A DNA stretch of 61,718 bases, filler included, from Globobulimina sp. (taxonomy: Eukaryota), in the NCBI GenBank assembly GCA_003354225.1. It is 24 parts of 24 records of this genome, joined end to end, with 100 filler letters (N's around TTAATTAATTAA, not from the genome) between each part and the next. Parts side by side here need not be neighbours in the genome. Positions count along the whole stretch, not along the records: positions 15,465 to 17,940 come from PIVH01006456.1; 23 more parts are not named here. One strand, 5' to 3'. The notes beneath the pieces were generated by a model, which was not told the DNA's origin, did no database searches, and saw nothing but the letters and a program-made list of their open reading frames with translations. Below are positions 2,579-17,940 of this stretch, piece by piece. The number at the start of each line of letters is the position of its first letter. The stretch's first letter is position 1. The position numbers and the translations under genes are program-made.

Positions 2579-4634
2579 TCCAAATTAATACATAAAGATT
2601 GCGCTGATTCATTCACATTCAATCACCGCCAACGTGCTATATTCGCCGAATTAAAGTCAAAAATACAAAATATTGATTATTTGCAGCATCCAGACCCACG
2701 TAAACCATTCCATGTATTTACCGATGCTTCAATGAATGCTCGCTCAGAAGAATGAAAAGGGTCAATTTCACCCAATCGCGTATCGAAGACCTTTGACAGA
2801 AATATTTGCTGTGATACATTGTGTGGAAAAATGGCAATATCTTTTAAATTGGAAGAAATTTGTGGTGCATACCGATCTCAGTAACCTTGAAAATCTATTT
2901 AATAAAGCCAGGGATTTTAGAGCCGGTAAATTGTATCGTTGGGCTGTGCGACTCCAAGATTTCCATTTTGAATGTCGATTTATTAAAGGCAAAGATAACA
3001 AAGCCGCTGATTATCTTAGTCGTGATGCCTTGGACTTGCCTGCAAACCGACCTCGGACAGTGACGAACCTCAACGGCATAAAAATAATATATTTACGCTC
3101 GACTATGGCCAAACGAGTGAATCTAGCGATGATTTACCCATCGACGACGCATATTTTCCGCCTGGCCATGCAATCCATGTTGATACCGACCCAAATACCA
3201 CAGCGCCAATACGTACATCGACCCGTATTGCCAATATTAATGCAAATCCATCGGATCGCATTGATCCCGACAACCACTACCTACTACGCCTCCGAATCGT
3301 TGAAATCATCCATGGATCTTCGCAAAAAACGGACCTTGGATCGTAAAAAAGAAAAAGCGAGGAATAAAAGCATAATAAATGATAAAGTATATTTTATCCA
3401 TTTTACAGTACGCCGATCCAAGATTATTATACCTCGATAATCAATCCACAAAATAAAGCAACGCAAAATCTAATTATTGAAAAGCAATGCGAAGACCCTT
3501 GCGTCCACGCTATAATCCGATATTTACGCGAGAATAATCCGGATTTAATCAATACTCTGCCAAAATATTTACAGCGCTATGTACTATCGGCCGCTATAAA
3601 ATAAATGAATTCAATGGAATGCTGTGTTATATGCATAATACAACAAATGAGGAATTAATCGTCGCGCCATGGCAATTACGCAAATCTATCATGAAATTTG
3701 CCCATTCATCACTCCATCCTGGCGCTACTACAATGAATCGAATTATTATTAATGAAATGGGATATTGGTGGCCCAAAATGCCACCACCTGCGATACCTGT
3801 CAACGCGTCAAAGCTGGCTCACATAATCGGAGCAAAAAATCGCATAAAATCAAATTGTTCCCAGCCACGAAGCCTTTCGAGCAAATATCCGTTGATATCG
3901 TCGGACCATTAATGTTATCATCGTCGCGCAATCGATATATTGTAACCATGATCGATAAATTCAGCCGATATTGCATGATGACGCCCGTCCGCGATATACG
4001 AGCAATGACTATCATTAAAGCCATTGATAAATGGATTGCCATATTTGGACCGCCCAAAAGCATCTTATCTGACAATGGGAGCCAATTCATTTCATCTATT
4101 TATCATAATTATATGTTAAATAATAAAAAAATAGAAAGAAAATATACGAGTACATACCATCCGGAGTGCAATGGACAGATTGAACGGTTGCATCGATGGC
4201 TAAAAGAGAGATTGGCGCTGATCGCCCAAGATGGAGGCCTTAACTTTCTCGATGGTACCGATGATTGGTCTGACTATCTACCAATCATACAATATACATA
4301 TAATTCGCAGTCAAACCGAATGACTACGTACTCGCCGACAAATATTATATTCGGCCACGATCCATACAAGCCATTACAATACGAATTTGACCCTAAAAAT
4401 CCATTGGCATATACCCGATTTATGGCGCACAGATTGAATATAATTCGTAATAACGCCAATGAGGCCCAACGAATCTACGATAAAATGCGCCAAAAATCAT
4501 ATGATTTGAACAAAATTGACGACACATTCGTCATCGGCCAACATGTACTATATAATATGCAATCGCATTATGTTGGAAATACATTTAATACCATAAATCA
4601 TTCATTATTAACCATGCAATCTCAAGATGCATGA
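2579..4634 (+). mobile_element. Degenerate Ty3/Gypsy LTR retrotransposon pol (RNase H, H2C2 zinc finger, integrase), frameshifted
   Basis: FHVFTDAS (~2710); LAQ..HPIAY..EIFAVIHCVEKWQYLL..FVVHTD..RWAVRLQDFHFECRFIKGKDNKAADYLSR; AHSSLHPG..YWWPKM / TCDTCQ; PFEQISVDIVGPL, SDNGSQF, YHPECNGQIER. RNaseH-then-integrase order is the Gypsy order. Several frame breaks. Confidence 0.93.
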
Positions 4635-5769
4635 ATGCTTTCAATTGAATTAAATTGTTCTCGGCGCCATTAATGTTCTCGGCGCCATACTGCAAAAATT
4701 ACATAATCCATTCGATCCGAATAAAATTAAATAATATGCAGATGTCCGGAACATAATATTCCAGGAACCAACGACGACGCCATGCAACCACAATGATAAT
4801 GTAATTAAATTGTTGAAATTGATAAAAATTTGCAAGGTTTATGCGTTTTACTGATAATAATATCACGAGGATCCCCCCAAAGCGTAAGGGTTACCCAAGG
4901 CAGACGGCGATATAACCCATGCATAGGGCGCTTCTGTGACCCATCAAAACCACGCAACGAGAAACAATGAACCAATTGGCACAATGGACATTGCTACAGA
5001 TCCAATCCACAAAGCGAATGCCAAGAACGTACATGCGCAGTGATTGACCGATAAACNNNNNNNNNNNNNNNNNNNNNNNNNNNNNNNNNNNNNNNNNNNN
5101 TTAATTAATTAANNNNNNNNNNNNNNNNNNNNNNNNNNNNNNNNNNNNNNNNNNNNGGGTGGGAGTTATTATGATGCGATGATCATCAAAACGAGAAAAT
5201 AATTTATATTTTAGTTTTGATGGTACTATATAGCCTTTGGTTGCTTTGCGTTTTCTATTACGAACGTGACCTACAAAAATTGGTTTGTTACAGTGTGCAC
5301 AATGAGTTCATGCTGATGCTGTACAAATTCTGAATGATATATCATGCGGGTCATCCATTGTTGTCCACCTTGCGCTTTTTTCATTTGCTTCCATGTTAAA
5401 TTAATTTAAAAAAAACCGTTTTTCTTCGAACATTTAGCACTATTGACCATGGAAGAAGATGCCTCTGTACACAAGATAGGGCATATCCAAGTATAGTTTA
5501 TTGATCCATAGACTTTAGAGGAGTAGGAATTGCAATTTAAAAGCCTACACAGAAAATGAAAAAAATGATCAGGTTCTTTGCAAAATATAAATCACTATCA
5601 ATTACAAATCGGTGATTATGTGGATATAAAACCAATAGGTTCAGAGGTATGGACAAATTAAAATTGTTTACATCATTGAAACAGATAACGATGTCTTTGA
5701 TGATTCTTCTAAATATCAATGGAGTCATTTTGATGATAAATGTGAATTACAACCATTGCAAACGAAAAA

Positions 5770-6200
5770 AGGGAATGTATTGTGACGATTCATTTGATTG
5801 TAATGCCGTTTTAAGGGAACATGTAATGTCCAGTCATAAAGAAAGAAAATATATTTAATTTGCCAATATTGTCCCGTTGCTATTCACAGTAGAAATGTCT
5901 TACAAATCCATATGAAACAACATACAAAAAATCCATGCTTTATTTGAATGCAGCTCCAGTTTTATAGAAAAGGGCCAATTTAATAGAATGGCACAGAAGA
6001 AAACACACAAAATTAAACATGATACAATTACGCCCGCATCAAAAACACCAATCCATTCACCAGCGCTCCAGAAGCAAATGGTTGCATATTATTGCATTAT
6101 TTGCGAGAACACATTTCAAAATAACTCATTCTTCCAACAGACCGCATATTTGTGGCCAATGCCCGCGTGCTTTCCATAGTCGATCTAAAAAAATAAGCTG
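5770..6200 (+). pseudogene. Degenerate tandem C2H2 zinc-finger gene
   Basis: Finger fragments in different frames: YCDDSFDCNAVLREHVMSSH, CQYCPVAIHSRNVLQIHMKQH, YYCIICENTF, RPHICGQCPRAF, interrupted by stops and frameshifts. Confidence 0.65.
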
Positions 6201-7734: not shown

Positions 7735-9129
7735 AAGCTTCAAACGCAAAATAAAAATATTAAAATGGATTATGTTCCATTGCTATGTTCAATGATATTA
7801 ATTACAAATAAATTGAAAGGAATCTCAGAATGCAAACAACTCTGCAAATCACTGCTGCAAAACGACCAATTTAATTTGCGATTATATAATATTTTTGCAC
7901 AAATAAACAAACAAAACAATCAATTTAAAAAAGTGTATAAAAATGCATTGAAAATGTTGAATTTGGTTCCAATGGAAGAAAAATGTTATGCGCCAATGTT
8001 ATTTTTTGAATATTTAATGATTGAGATATTACATAAAAATAATAATAATTTGCCACAAATTATTGAATTGGTTATCAATGCGGTTCAATTTAAATTTAAT
8101 GTCATTTCAAATAAACATAAACATAAAAAAGAGTATGATATCAATGCAGCAAATGCAAAATATAATATTTTATTGTCACAAAAGGATGAAACATTTTGGA
8201 AGTCGCCAAATGAGACATTGATGGATATTCCGTGTTCCTTATTTAATTCCAGAGCACCAAGTACATATTTCTTCATTTTTGGATTTATCTTAAATTTATT
8301 AACAAACAATAATATGCAGCAAAGTATCAATTATGTTCTATATCAATTAATATCGAAAAAAAATGAAAAATACATCGGAAATAAATTCAAAAATAAATCC
8401 GAAATTGAATTCGTTTTATATTATTGTATAAAAATAATTGAGTGGCATAAAAATATGAAAAACAGCAACAATAACAATGGCAATAAATATATAATGGATT
8501 TAGTTAAACATTCATGCTGTTTATACCCAACAAATGCATATTTTTTGTCTTGCATTGAAATATATTCATTCAATAAATTTGCGATTCGATCAATTTATAA
8601 ATCATTATTGCAACCAAACAACAAAAATAATAAAAATAAAAAAACAAATCAATTGATGGTGGCAATAAAATATATACTATTTGAGATTGAAAATAATTTA
8701 TCCTTTTCATGTTTAATATCAATTTTTAATGATTGTTTGCTAATTAATGCTTGTAAATATAATGTTGCCTTTTGGCGGCTGTATCTGTATTATTTGAAAT
8801 GCAATAACAAGAATAGGAAAGCAATAACAACACAGAATAACCACAACGATAATAATAAGAGTCGATACCAAAGACAAAGATTAAAGAGACAGAGACAATT
8901 ATTACTAAATGAAAAAGAAAAACACATCGATCGATTGAAAAATATATTTGAAATGGCAGTGCAAACAATTTGTAACTCAAAAATGTTATATTTATCTTGT
9001 GTACATATCATACATTCACATTGCGACGCGGATGAACTTAGAAACTATTTCAAGTTTTTTCAAACAAAATATTTGAACATTTCCCAACATGAATTACAAA
9101 AATATTTAATATCAAAGAGTCACAGCTAA
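7735..9129 (+). CDS. NRDE-2-like HAT-repeat protein, C-terminal part (5' truncated)
   Basis: LRLYNIFAQI..KKVYKNAL; LYPTNAYFL; VAFWRLYLYY..NIFEMAVQTICNSKMLYL..DELRNYF resemble the NRDE2 C-terminus. Frame is open from the contig start. Confidence 0.7.
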   Translation, partial: KLQTQNKNIKMDYVPLLCSMILITNKLKGISECKQLCKSLLQNDQFNLRLYNIFAQINKQNNQFKKVYKNALKMLNLVPMEEKCYAPMLFFEYLMIEILHKNNNNLPQIIELVINAVQFKFNVISNKHKHKKEYDINAANAKYNILLSQKDETFWKSPNETLMDIPCSLFNSRAPSTYFFIFGFILNLLTNNNMQQSINYVLYQLISKKNEKYIGNKFKNKSEIEFVLYYCIKIIEWHKNMKNSNNNNGNKYIMDLVKHSCCLYPTNAYFLSCIEIYSFNKFAIRSIYKSLLQPNNKNNKNKKTNQLMVAIKYILFEIENNLSFSCLISIFNDCLLINACKYNVAFWRLYLYYLKCNNKNRKAITTQNNHNDNNKSRYQRQRLKRQRQLLLNEKEKHIDRLKNIFEMAVQTICNSKMLYLSCVHIIHSHCDADELRNYFKFFQTKYLNISQHELQKYLISKSHS

Positions 9130-15464: not shown

Positions 15465-15555
15465 CGCATATCAAACACCTATAATTATCCCTTACAAGTA
15501 TCTCGTTTGCTTTTATTTTCCATTGCACAGTTCGGATTTGTTCCCTGTATGTCAT
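15465..15555 (-). CDS. N-terminus of a phage-type HNH endonuclease (truncated by contig end; not in the ORF track)
   Basis: Manual translation MTYREQIRTVQWKIKANEILVRDNYRCLIC matches the Y....W...R.EIL.RD.Y.C..C start of phage HNH proteins. Confidence 0.7.
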
Positions 15556-15560
15556 ATAGC

Positions 15561-15675
15561 ACAAAACCCCTAAAAAGAAAAAAGACAGAAAAACGGGCTT
15601 CCACTCCCTGCAAACTGTCTAATCTCCCTTTAAGGGTATATTTTTAAATAAGTATAATCTAATTTCATGTGGAAG
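15561..15675 (-). promoter_or_regulatory. Structured leader: 12-aa leader ORF (15668-15630) plus 22-bp hairpin (arms 15636-15615 and 15588-15567) whose loop is complementary to the leader start region
   Basis: 20 of 22 positions pair on the minus-strand RNA, including four G.U pairs. Inner hairpin GGG-AGUGGAAG-CCC. Loop GUGGAAG (15604-15598) is the reverse complement of CUUCCAC (15675-15669) directly before the leader AUG. UUUUG follows the stem. Confidence 0.7.
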
Positions 15676-15693
15676 ATGTTTTTAAATGCACTA

Positions 15694-15701
15694 CAAATAT
15701 A
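15694..15701 (-). promoter_or_regulatory. Bacteroidota-type -7 promoter box (TAnnTTTG)
   Basis: Minus strand reads TATATTTG in an intergenic gap ~25 nt upstream of the leader ORF; no clear -33 TTTG. Confidence 0.55.
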
Positions 15702-15731
15702 GCACTATTTTTTATATATTAACCTTTTTTA

Positions 15732-15974
15732 TTAACGAAAAGCATTTATATTTTTACTTGTTAGAGCTATAACTTCATTAACATGTGTATTTAAGTTTTC
15801 ATCACGCAACGTATCGTGTAGCACAACAAATCCATCAGACTTTTGCCACAATACAGTGATTTCTTCATCAAAAAACTCTTGTAACAATTCAGCCATTATT
15901 TCACATTGTGAATGCATCTGACTCTCTGCTTTTTTTGCTCGCATATGTGCTGTATTAAATTTCCGTAAGTCCAT
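15732..15974 (-). CDS. Small phage hypothetical protein
   Basis: ATG lies 2 nt after the upstream stop in a tightly packed, co-directional, intronless cluster. Confidence 0.65.
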   Translation of the reverse strand: MDLRKFNTAHMRAKKAESQMHSQCEIMAELLQEFFDEEITVLWQKSDGFVVLHDTLRDENLNTHVNEVIALTSKNINAFR

Positions 15975-15976
15975 AA

Positions 15977-16267
15977 TCAATCCTCCCTGGTTTCGTTTAT
16001 TTGTATTTTTTCTTCCATTAATTCTAATGCATTATAACCGTTGTGGGTTAGATAATTGATACCAGCCAGAATTATATCAACACATTCTATTGCAGCTTTT
16101 TTGTTGAATTTATCATCAATAACTTTAGTTTTTAAAGTGGTTATTTCGGCTTGCATTTCGCAGAATTCCTCCACTATCTTTTTGTTGAAATCTGAGTGGG
16201 TAGTTTGAGGGGTAATTAAACCCCTCTTTACTATTGAATCGTAGTTGCGTTTTATTAAATTGTCCAT
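15977..16267 (-). CDS. MazG-like / all-alpha NTP pyrophosphohydrolase (phage type)
   Basis: KIVEEFCEM ... AIECVDII ... MEEKIQINETRED fits the EExxE..ExxD signature; start overlaps the upstream stop (TGATG). Confidence 0.65.
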   Translation of the reverse strand: MDNLIKRNYDSIVKRGLITPQTTHSDFNKKIVEEFCEMQAEITTLKTKVIDDKFNKKAAIECVDIILAGINYLTHNGYNALELMEEKIQINETRED

Positions 16268-17940
16268 CAGAATAAATTTAATTGTTTTTCTTTTTCAACA
16301 ACCCTCTTTATATTCTTAGATGCAGTATCAAAATAAGATTCCTTCAACTCAACACCACAACCAAACCTATTTAATTTAACAGCCTCATAAACCTCTGATC
16401 CTATTCCAAGGAAAGGAGTAAAAACAACGTCTCTTTGATTTGTCCAGAACTGGATAGCTCTCCTAATTACAGTCAATTGTAATGGTGCAATGTGCTTTTC
16501 ATCTTTTATCTCTGTTGATTCACGGTTGTTTAATACGTCAGTCCTTCTAATGTCAAACCAGCTACCAGTTAACCAATTAGGGTCTAAATCCCATTTAGAT
16601 TCATCAGTAACATCTACCCCGTTCATTTCATAATAATACTTAACAAGTTCGATTAATTCAGTTTTAGGTATTTTTTCACCCCAAACAGGACTTGCCCAAC
16701 GTTGCCAAGTATCTAAAGGGAAATTATCAAATGTTTTATTTGTAACAGGAATATAAGCTTCTGTTTGCCTAAAATCTTCTAAACCGTCCCATTTCTTAAA
16801 TATTGTTATGTATTCCGGAAGCCCAACTCCGCTAAATCTTGAATCTTTCCTTAATTGCTTATAAAGTAATCTTTGAGTTTTAGTTCTCTGCATTTCAAGT
16901 ACAGGATCAGTCCAAATAGTTATTTTAGAATGATATCTAAATCCTGCCTTTTCCATTGCTCTATGATAATCTCCAGTAAAATCATACAAACCAGTGTAAC
17001 CGCTCGAACCTTTGTAAACAGCTAAATCTTTCGAATGAACGCAAACAATACCGCCAATTTTCATTTTATTGAATAATTTATTTAATAAAAATTGGTTTTG
17101 CTCAAAGAATTCAGCATGATTAACACAATTACCCATATCTCTATATGAATTAGAGTATGTGAAAAGCATTGAAAATGGAGGACTAAATATTGAAAAGTCA
17201 AAACTCTCATCTTTAAAACAGTCTATTTCTTTGACGGAATCACCATTAATTATATGGTAACTTTCATTTTTTACTTCTTTTTTTTCGTAATCCATAACTA
17301 AACTATATTCAGAATTAATACTTGTAACCATCTCTTTTCTCATATTTTCAAACATCTTTTGTTTGCGCTCAATTGTTAATTTAGCATTTTCCATTGTCTG
17401 AATCGAAATTAAATAAACTACTACTTTTTCTTTTCTTCCAAATCTATGCGCTCTTTTTAACGCCTGATAATAAAGTTCAAAACTAAAGTCAGGGCTTACA
17501 TGGATTTGTATATCACAGTTTTGATAATTCATTCCAAAACCTGCAATGCTTTTTTTTGTTACTAAAATTCTAAACTTATTATGAGCAAACTCAATCAAAT
17601 CCCTTTCCTTATCTTCTGGTTTATCTGACCCTCTAACCTCTCGGAATGATAATTGTAACTCTTTTAATCTTCTTTTAATATAATCAGCTTCATCATTCCT
17701 CTCTACCCAAGCTATTATTTGTTTTTCTGGATTGTTAAGAATTATTTTTATAGTTTCCTCACAACGACATACTAAAGTCCTCCTTAATTCAGGGTGTTTT
17801 TCTGTTGCTGAAACTGCAAAATCATTGAATAATTTTCCATTATCTTGTTTCTCTACATCAATAACAACGTCAATAATTTCAAGCTCTGGTAATTCATATT
17901 CTTTACCCTCATTTTCAAAGCCTAAATCGCTTGGAGAATT
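16267..17940 (-). CDS. Phage SF2 helicase C-terminal region fused to an N4/N6 DNA methyltransferase (5' truncated)
   Basis: Frame is open to the contig end (..PSDLGFE..YELPEL..EVRGSD..); helicase motifs ILVTKKSIAGFGMNYQ and YYQALKRAHRFG; MTase FSIFSPPFS, DEKHIAPLQ, VVFTPFLGIGSE, GVELKESYF. Confidence 0.88.
   Translation of the reverse strand, partial: NSPSDLGFENEGKEYELPELEIIDVVIDVEKQDNGKLFNDFAVSATEKHPELRRTLVCRCEETIKIILNNPEKQIIAWVERNDEADYIKRRLKELQLSFREVRGSDKPEDKERDLIEFAHNKFRILVTKKSIAGFGMNYQNCDIQIHVSPDFSFELYYQALKRAHRFGRKEKVVVYLISIQTMENAKLTIERKQKMFENMRKEMVTSINSEYSLVMDYEKKEVKNESYHIINGDSVKEIDCFKDESFDFSIFSPPFSMLFTYSNSYRDMGNCVNHAEFFEQNQFLLNKLFNKMKIGGIVCVHSKDLAVYKGSSGYTGLYDFTGDYHRAMEKAGFRYHSKITIWTDPVLEMQRTKTQRLLYKQLRKDSRFSGVGLPEYITIFKKWDGLEDFRQTEAYIPVTNKTFDNFPLDTWQRWASPVWGEKIPKTELIELVKYYYEMNGVDVTDESKWDLDPNWLTGSWFDIRRTDVLNNRESTEIKDEKHIAPLQLTVIRRAIQFWTNQRDVVFTPFLGIGSEVYEAVKLNRFGCGVELKESYFDTASKNIKRVVEKEKQLNLF

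Follow-up and report, generated by a model that had tools for sequence, protein, structure and literature searches.

A 61,718-base stretch of assembled DNA from Globobulimina sp. (GCA_003354225.1; hereafter, the window, meaning the whole stretch analysed) includes a phage-type contig in which the intergenic leader upstream of a small HNH-type endonuclease gene is predicted to fold into a long hairpin, whose apical loop is perfectly complementary to a heptamer near the 5′ end of the same leader. The same layout (a TAnnTTTG box, then a target near the 5′ end, a terminator-like hairpin carrying the complement of this target in its loop, a U-run and finally early or replication genes) was found in 11 leader types, each with a different perfect loop/target pair of 7–10 nucleotides (nt). 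One of these types is that of the window, and the others derive from seven IMG/VR contigs and from cultured phages of Cellulophaga, Flavobacterium and Olleya. Comparison of the predicted elements showed that the loop/target pair has been kept through complete sequence change across these 11 types. We interpret the region, with a probability of roughly 0.6, as the leader of a phage early/replication-type operon, representing an uncatalogued leader RNA design of Flavobacteriaceae phages and uncultured relatives that may function as an attenuator with a contact in cis between loop and leader.

Hairpin, loop and target in the window and its relatives

All leader coordinates refer to the minus strand of the whole stretch (Table 1). 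Each of the elements named in an initial annotation of this DNA (a promoter-like box, a heptamer directly before an AUG, a small open reading frame (ORF), a stem, a loop complement and a U-rich arm) was recovered at the positions listed in Table 1. The 78-nt hairpin was shown to fold at –33.5 kcal/mol on the gene-sense (minus) strand (z-score –5.5; 0 of 200 shuffles), compared with –17.9 kcal/mol on the plus strand. The hairpin is accordingly real and specific to the gene-sense strand, and the argument of the initial annotation, that the G·U pairs imply structure at the RNA level, holds because of this difference. RNAfold paired 15636–15615 with 15588–15567 in two blocks of 15 and 6 pairs flanking the 2×2 internal loop, with one extra basal A-U pair. 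Taken alone, the upper stem AGACAG/CUGUCU, followed by UUUUUUCUUUUU, accounts for –12.2 kcal/mol (z-score –1.7), and the apical GGG/CCC mini-hairpin is no better than chance (z-score 0.06). The base of the hairpin reads CCCUUA...UAGGGG, with UUUU next to it, and the downstream gene starts with an ATG at 15555, 11 nt after the stem; in relatives, U4–U7 begins 0–5 nt after the stem. The U-run is weaker in the window than in cultured phages, among which relatives with clear U7 tails occur. Within the full leader, the loop heptamer GUGGAAG displayed an unpaired probability of 0.987. CTTCCAC and GTGGAAG each occur once in the window contig, and CUUCCAC starts 27 nt after the start of the box, as compared with +20 to +41 in the ten other leader types.

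In the window, a complement of at least 7 nt between the 8-nt loop and the 95 nt upstream was observed in 9 of 5000 shuffles. This number rose to 25–33 of 5000 when the loop was extended by 2 nt on either side, and under wider post-hoc definitions to 76 of 5000 (whole 26-nt interior) and 347 of 5000 (downstream sequence allowed too). For comparison across types, a uniform rule was applied in which the loop of the largest hairpin (±2 nt) was matched against the 5′ leader, with 5000 shuffles as the null. The first six types each displayed a perfect 7–8-nt pair under this rule, starting 21–27 nt after the box start, with an equally long complement in 25, 80, 14, 78, 51 and 39 of 5000 shuffles (nominal Fisher p 6e-8, which is not exact since the sequences are related). 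Nine types were tested in total, and complements of equal or greater length were found in 0–121 of 5000 shuffles. Among the nine, L021 (L numbers designate individual contigs or records) has a 10-nt pair (0/5000 under the uniform rule) and adjoins the end of a methylase gene, L005 has a 9-nt pair (30/5000) with a loader-like gene behind it, and L020 has a 7-nt pair (121/5000) and precedes a helicase-methylase gene. In L005 and L020, the uniform rule chose a 5′ hairpin, and the scores given here use the hairpin preceding the U-run instead.

As a control based on real sequences, the rule was applied to 76 other hairpins located upstream of HNH genes, of which three contained a complement of at least 7 nt (L062, L081 and L167). 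L062 and L081 (8 nt each) exhibited the complete layout including the box, the HNH AUG of L062 following directly after U7; L167 is an A+T-rich false positive, giving a background of 1 among the remaining 74 hairpins. In 8 of the 11 types (including L005 at 5960–5995 and the equivalents in L021, L020 and L081), a small local hairpin displays the target in its loop, suggesting that a loop–loop (kissing) contact is the usual form. Covariation of the loop heptamer with its upstream target, which the initial annotation had put forward as a check, was thus encountered as CUUCCAC/GUGGAAG in the window, AUCUGAC/GUCAGAU in L179 and nine further pairs in nine further types.

L179, the closest relative, is an IMG/VR contig that was reached by searching with the N-terminus of the HNH protein rather than with the upstream genes. 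Strict patterns for this N-terminus returned 3 and then 4 stretches from IMG/VR; two of the latter were chance matches and two represent the phage of L179. The second contig of this phage, L253, derives from another sample, scored 166 bits with the model, as did L179, and does not differ from L179 over the 300 nt compared. The leaders of the window and L179 exhibit 73% column identity, as compared with ~50% for flanking coding DNA, and share the context of the box as well as GCAUU(U)AAAA after it. Their hairpins measure 70 nt (window) and 71 nt (L179, with base CCCCUA...UAGGGG), the HNH AUG of L179 follows 12 nt after the stem, and the leader of L179 was predicted to fold at –48.1 kcal/mol over 150 nt (z-score –4.0). 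In independent folds of the two leaders, 19 pairs occupied the same alignment columns, of which 8 were invariant, 4 changed on one side and 7 changed on both; all cells pair, compared with 51–61% when the 3′ partners were slid. This covariation is supportive of the predicted hairpin and, being derived from two sequences and a structure deduced from them, not decisive. Column covariation was counted for this pair only, because seven-way and five-way MAFFT alignments shift the helix registers by 1–2 columns.

The loop heptamers of the two leaders occupy the same columns and differ at 4 of 7 positions, and the positions of their targets, counted from the AUG, are no more than 2 nt apart (–7 to –1 for CUUCCAC and –9 to –3 for AUCUGAC). 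With the definition fixed from the window, a complement of at least 7 nt was obtained in 59 of 5000 shuffles for L179 and in 33 of 5000 for the window; under the widest definition, the value for L179 was 782 of 5000. The leader of L179 is followed by genes encoding an HNH protein (117 amino acids (aa)), a DnaD-like loader and a DnaB-like helicase. At the DNA level, a 123-nt part of the loader gene is 72.6% identical to Cellulophaga phages phi19:1 and phi10:1, and a tblastn search of the L179 HNH protein against phages returned two distant matches only.

Viewed individually, the promoter-like box of the window is unremarkable, as TAnnTTTG occurs in 21% of shuffled intergenic regions and four times on this strand of the contig, three of these being within genes. 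No –33 TTTG is present upstream of it, and the TATATTTG box may also be read as an extended –10 element (TGcTATATT, 15704–15696). The 13-mer AGTGCTATATTTG at the box is identical in L171, which also has a –33 TTTG 19 nt upstream; the counterpart in L179 is GCTATGTTTG. At the equivalent place, TATATTTG was found in the leaders of Cellulophaga phage phi19:1 and of Flavobacterium and Olleya phages, with the variant TATATTTA in phi10:1. The distance from the box to the downstream gene is –146 in the window, –143 in L179, –138 in L171, –142 in phi19:1, –154 in FspS, –156 in morran, –122 in L062 and –158 in L081, the window falling within the 120–160 nt that defined membership. Exceptions are Harreka_1 (–287, with an annotated small coding sequence in between) and L020, which lacks a box. 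The putative promoter of the initial annotation is therefore supported by conservation across relatives, i.e. L171 and cultured Flavobacteriaceae phages, and not by the window alone. No promoter-like box was seen between the hairpin arms, the sole box being upstream of both.

In phi19:1, the gap preceding the homologous operon was shown to contain the box and, in the 5′ leader, GUACGAC, as well as a hairpin (UACCCUUAUAG...CUAUGAGGGUA) that carries GUCGUAC in its apical region and is followed by UUUU. A conserved piece next to this leader led to 30 Flavobacterium phage records and Olleya phage Harreka_1, and eleven further cultured-phage records were examined. Eight Flavobacterium phages possess one common leader with the pair GUGAGACG/CGUCUCAC, morran9-1 differs by one compensatory pair (GUGAGAAG/CUUCUCAC) and Harreka_1 carries GUGGUGG/CCACCAC. 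The base of the hairpin in the Flavobacterium and Harreka_1 types is AUC(C/U)(U/C)A...UGGGAU, followed by U7. In the cultured phages, a single-stranded DNA-binding protein (SSB) gene, ended by a canonical terminator of its own, precedes the box and leader, after which come a 70-aa gene and a gene for a replication protein or primase-helicase. In the complete genome of lillamy9-1 (38,268 bp), 13 terminator-like hairpins were identified, but only one intergenic sense-strand unit with a loop complement; neither of its octamers (target and loop) is repeated elsewhere in this genome, and a second occurrence of GCTTCGACCT (at 9027) has no partner.

A further element, 46 nt in length, is located immediately 5′ of the start of the 70-aa gene (2241–2286 of L257, i.e. 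phi19:1, with equivalents in L258–L267). It is ~85% conserved in the 30 Flavobacterium phage records, is present in Harreka_1 and contains a small hairpin beside the AUG.

In terms of predicted gene content, the relatives were shown to place the leader before replication genes, and the window contig itself ends 30 codons into the HNH gene. An HNH gene is positioned directly behind the leader hairpin in 3 of the 11 types (window, 15555; L179, 901; and L062), this place being occupied in the other types by a replication gene or a 70-aa gene. Because the same leader also precedes non-HNH genes, the element is assigned to the start of the early/replication operon and not to HNH; the junction behind the leader may represent a landing site for HNH cassettes.

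Other small HNH genes are preceded by different leader RNAs, as observed in L171 (763–903) and L170 (the 150 nt upstream of its HNH start, on the minus strand of that locus). The hairpin loops of these are complementary to the HNH start region (GCGUGAU/AUCACGC in L171 and AUAUCUCUUU/AAAGAGAUAU in L170; 7 and 10 nt, respectively), and both were excluded from the family count. In L171, the box and this different hairpin leader are followed by genes for HNH, an O-like initiator and a primase-helicase. An HNH gene of the L003 type has 35 nt upstream only, and hence no leader.

A covariance model built from the window and L179 (R1) found only its own sequences, with no match in L171 or L170. A second model (R2), derived from five cultured-phage leaders with 10 pairs, produced 9 weak matches among 68 sources, three of which (L005, L020 and L021) are helicase-methylase relatives of the window that possess the design. 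The other six (L012, L175, L010, L022, L031 and a plus-strand match in L062) were rejected, the design being absent at the match. The initial annotation had suspected an unnamed family, and this agrees with the Rfam searches: the contig, scanned with cmscan at E up to 10, yielded six weak and unrelated matches, none of them in the leader, five relatives at E up to 1 gave no match, neither C4 nor IsrK/seqA was matched, and Rfam 15 contains no family covering the leader element. In the full-text literature, subscription journals being outside coverage, the design was not found described for Cellulophaga or Flavobacterium phages. The element is probably an uncatalogued RNA control element; we regard it as a real conserved RNA that is absent from Rfam and that represents a new variant among leader/attenuator RNAs.

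Source contig and neighbouring genes

The window consists of 24 contigs of 2,474–2,478 bp, sorted by length and joined by linkers of the form N44-TTAATTAATTAA-N44. The leader is located in one contig of 2,476 bp (15465–17940; G+C 0.317), of which all genes are on the minus strand (Table 1). Contigs beside this phage contig contain long low-complexity ORFs of eukaryotic appearance, and the assembly is therefore mixed.

Table 1. Positions of leader elements and genes in the phage contig, counted along the whole stretch
Feature	Position	Strand	Remarks
Promoter-like –7 box TATATTTG, Bacteroidota type TAnnTTTG	15694..15701	–	Conserved in relatives
Target heptamer T, CUUCCAC	15669..15675	–	Perfect complement of apical loop; directly 5′ of AUG 15668–15666
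12-codon ORF MKLDYTYLKIYP + stop	15630..15668	–	Stop UAA 15632–15630 inside 5′ arm; probably not conserved coding
Long terminator-like hairpin	15566..15637	–	15-pair lower stem, 2×2 internal loop, 6-pair upper stem, small apical hairpin
Loop heptamer T′, GUGGAAG	15598..15604	–	Inside 8-nt apical loop AGUGGAAG of GGG-AGUGGAAG-CCC
U-rich stretch	15563..15582	–	UUUUUUCUUUUU forms 3′ arm, then AGGGG (Shine–Dalgarno-like stem base), UUUU immediately after stem
Helicase_C + N6/N4 DNA methylase fusion gene	17940–16267	–	Open at contig 5′ end
96-aa gene	16267–15977	–	Upstream of 80-aa gene
Gene for 80-aa protein, function not assigned	15732..15974	–	GGGAGGA before ATG
Gap holding leader, 176 nt	Between 80-aa gene and HNH-type gene	–	
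Small HNH-type endonuclease gene, first 30 codons	15466..15555	–	ATG 15555; truncated by contig end

The start of the HNH gene was correctly placed by the initial annotation in so far as an ATG follows just after the stem, but only 30 codons are present because the contig ends there, and the HNH identity rests on a 103-aa ORF of L003 with matches to PHROG HNH families, to which these 30 residues are 47% identical. No family was matched by the fragment itself; its N-terminus is of the type Y-x5-T-x-Q-W-x2-K-x2-E-I, as in the 117-aa HNH protein of L179. Just three relatives of the 80-aa protein were identified among 5.8 billion proteins (63–72% identity), while the protein or its alignment found no relative in IMG/VR and GTDB genome contigs, and tblastn against phages found none. 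A blastn search of the whole contig against GenBank phages returned a 123-nt helicase match only, and the exact 36-nt hairpin pattern had 0 matches in IMG/VR.

Protein relatives of the helicase-methylase were found at 27 IMG/VR loci and 28 metagenome loci, all being ~50% identical, and at none of these does the 80-aa gene adjoin a leader and an HNH gene. As a separate observation, the helicase-methylase match is split into two pieces (query residues 1–381 and 330–443) in L023 (2606–4780), L024 and L025 (both 4001–6175), with ~820 nt between the pieces, indicative of an insertion inside the methylase gene.

A Bacteroidota-type phage, as proposed in the initial annotation, is likely in view of the type of box, the link to Cellulophaga phages and the occurrence of this design among cultured phages of Flavobacteriaceae. 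Counting against such a host is the GGGAGGA preceding the 80-aa gene (15975–15991, 7 nt from the ATG), a strong Shine–Dalgarno (SD)-like sequence that is unusual for Bacteroidota.

Interpretation and alternative explanations

In the proposed mechanism, the hairpin would serve as a promoter-proximal terminator (attenuator), a form that is evident in the cultured phages, with U7, and less evident in the window, with U4. An intramolecular kissing or pseudoknot contact between loop and leader may set how much transcription or translation reaches the downstream genes. Because the complement is always located in the loop and not in the stem, this contact is compatible with the hairpin and could coexist with it, which would distinguish it from a classical antiterminator, and it may tune termination, RNA stability or ribosome access in cis. 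In the window, the base of the stem would bury the SD-like AGGGG, so that little translation would be expected from read-through RNA for as long as the hairpin is formed. An alternative antiterminator fold, in which AAAAAC-AU-CUUCCAC pairs with GUGGAAG-CCC-GUUUUU, forms in partial transcripts of the window leader; it was not relied on, being marginal relative to shuffles and involving a complement that is in the loop rather than the stem.

Several observations weigh against this interpretation. The window hairpin was not called by a consensus intrinsic-terminator scan, which needs a loop of 3–8; just four U residues follow the full stem in the window, and the U5 of L179 begins 5 nt past the stem. 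The antiterminator-like fold mentioned above is matched in 24–54 of 1000 shuffles (duplex) and 42 of 500 (partial transcript), and no stable local 5′ hairpin was predicted around the target in the window. L005, L020 and L021 were picked by eye from the 9 weak model matches (E 2.6–9.1), the automatic hairpin rule having failed for two of them. Moreover, R2 matched neither the window nor L179 at E up to 10; these two are joined to the other nine types by shared layout and synteny, not by significant sequence or profile similarity, and convergence between the two groups is possible. Finally, the one sequencing run found to contain the window contigs (X1; identical, word depth ~5, no variants) is not recorded as RNA, and promoter, RNA ends and termination are accordingly putative.

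Considerably less probable than an attenuator acting in cis, and put forward tentatively by analogy with P4 CI and P1 C4, is an antisense activity in trans. Here, a short terminated or processed RNA ending in the U-run would accumulate and, through its terminator loop, would form a kissing contact with the target loop of leaders under synthesis, whether from the same phage or from an incoming phage of the same type, thereby shutting off the HNH/replication operon. Such a sequence-coded, phage-specific switch would provide immunity, copy control or exclusion of superinfecting phages; it would parallel P4 CI and plasmid countertranscript attenuation, but from the sense strand, and the 11 pairs would be its specificity classes. 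Display of the complement in a loop, observed in all types, is a property of antisense RNAs, the target is likewise looped in most types, and the differences between the loops of the window and L179, in leaders that are otherwise 73% identical, are as expected of a specificity determinant. The downstream genes of the relatives are replication genes, and the passage on P4 in PMC4825925 describes a CI RNA, derived from the leader, that stops transcription before replication genes; similarly, the c4 RNA as outlined in PMC12197685 pairs via loops around a ribosome-binding site. Pairing within one RNA is, on the other hand, kinetically favoured over pairing between two, and the leader has a single target (octamers once each in lillamy9-1, heptamers once each in the window contig), as opposed to two in P4 (seqA and seqC). 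The lack of an Rfam match to C4 or IsrK/seqA also argues against this explanation.

An unlikely explanation is that the hairpin mainly limits translation of the HNH gene by burying its ribosome-binding region, as for T4 I-TevI, segB and Aeh1 mobE. AGGGG, the 3′ base of the stem, is indeed positioned 11 nt before the HNH AUG with an unpaired probability of 0.001, the same UAGGGG is found 12 nt before the AUG in L179, and the 3′ arm of L062 (GGAAAGGGAU) lies 7 nt before its AUG. Bacteroidota are generally not reliant on SD sequences, which reduces the weight of this arrangement. Strong hairpins (–25 kcal/mol or lower) were ~2 times more common upstream of small HNH genes than inside them (23 of 83 versus 10 of 83, non-redundant loci). 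A T4 review describes very stable structures sequestering ribosome-binding sites, as well as terminators, at homing-endonuclease genes (PMC2988022). The same design nevertheless precedes non-HNH genes (the 70-aa gene in cultured phages, a loader gene in L005 and the helicase-methylase gene in L020), an internal late promoter to free the ribosome-binding site, as in T4, is absent, and the co-varying loop/target pair is left unexplained.

Ribosome-mediated attenuation, in which translation of the 12-codon ORF would decide whether the terminator forms, is very improbable, and the 12-aa leader peptide of the initial annotation is not supported. The AUG directly follows the target and the stop is within the 5′ arm; in L179, an AUG is present at the same place and codons 6, 8, 10 and 12 give the same residues, the ORF spanning the hairpin and ending 15 nt before the HNH AUG. 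However, a closed ATG ORF of at least 12 codons was obtained in 1992 of 5000 shuffles, and such an ORF directly after the target is present in only 2 of the 11 types, with different lengths (12 codons in the window, 33 in L179) and different stops. Two Flavobacterium types have AUG-AAG-UGA only, and no AUG was seen beside the target in phi19:1 or Harreka_1. In L179, moreover, the AUG belongs to the small stem displaying the target (GCAUU/AAUGC), as its 3′ strand, and no run of a single regulatory codon was found beyond the A+T-rich expectation.

A plain intrinsic terminator between modules, or an RNase III site, at the end of the upstream operon, with box, ORF and loop complement occurring by chance, was considered first and dropped as hardly tenable. 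In its favour, the stop codon of the 80-aa gene is ~96 nt upstream of the hairpin with its U-rich 3′ arm, a stem of 22 bp interrupted by an internal loop is reminiscent of RNase III substrates, and box and ORF are individually unremarkable. The comparative data on relatives largely refute it, since eleven different perfect pairs occur at the same place versus ~1 of 74 among other hairpins, the box is conserved, and the cultured phages terminate the upstream SSB gene separately before the box and leader.

Very little is known about the timing of early and replication genes in Bacteroidota phages. Recurrence of the design in cultured Cellulophaga, Flavobacterium and Olleya phages, which can be grown and mutated, renders the preferred reading testable. 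If the contact between loop and leader gates termination or translation, the element would be a new type of attenuator, regulated through the loop of its terminator instead of the stem; an activity in trans would make it a system that confers sequence-coded specificity on phage replication. In genome annotation, the element marks the start of operons.

Relation to known systems

The order of elements described here, i.e. promoter, leader of ~100–150 nt, terminator and operon, corresponds to that of the lambda pR′-6S RNA-tR′ region, which is read through by Q. To our knowledge, no pairing between loop and leader is known for the latter.

In the immunity system of P4, the CI RNA (seqB) has targets seqA and seqC in the leader of the alpha operon. 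This system resembles the present element in that a leader before phage replication genes contains a short self-complement tied to premature termination (PMC4825925). P4 has two targets, one per side, whereas a single, upstream target is present here, and the complement is displayed, unlike in P4, in the loop of a hairpin preceding a U-run. Furthermore, the P4 CI RNA is a processed, trans-acting product, whereas both properties would be hypothetical for the present leader; the two have no sequence or Rfam relation, and P4 has enterobacterial hosts, as opposed to probable Bacteroidota hosts here. In P1 and P7 c4, short loop sequences pair with targets beside a start codon in the same operon, and the two phages differ in their c4 pairing sequences, resulting in heteroimmunity, according to PMC12197685. 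The differences between P1 and P7 resemble the different loop/target pairs among the present leaders, but no Rfam match to c4 was found and c4 acts on an antirepressor operon, not on replication genes. The parallel drawn in the initial annotation with P4 CI and P1 C4 thus remains apt as an analogy, the leader preceding replication genes in relatives, while membership of the C4 family or of the P4 scheme is not supported, in view of the missing Rfam match and the presence of one target rather than two.

The hairpins of T-even homing-endonuclease genes (I-TevI, segB and Aeh1 mobE) share with the window leader a very stable hairpin before an HNH-type gene and a buried SD-like sequence, as presented in the relevant part of PMC2988022. 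In the T4 scheme, a late promoter is located inside or after the 5′ arm, whereas the box is upstream of both arms here and the leader also precedes non-HNH genes. Lastly, terminator loops of the Escherichia coli small RNAs SdsR, RseX and ArrS, acting on fepA, provide a precedent for the terminator loop as a regulatory surface; these are trans-acting RNAs, the loops of which likely function without base-pairing in the account given in PMC11979758, whereas the loop described here has a perfect, co-varying partner in the same RNA.

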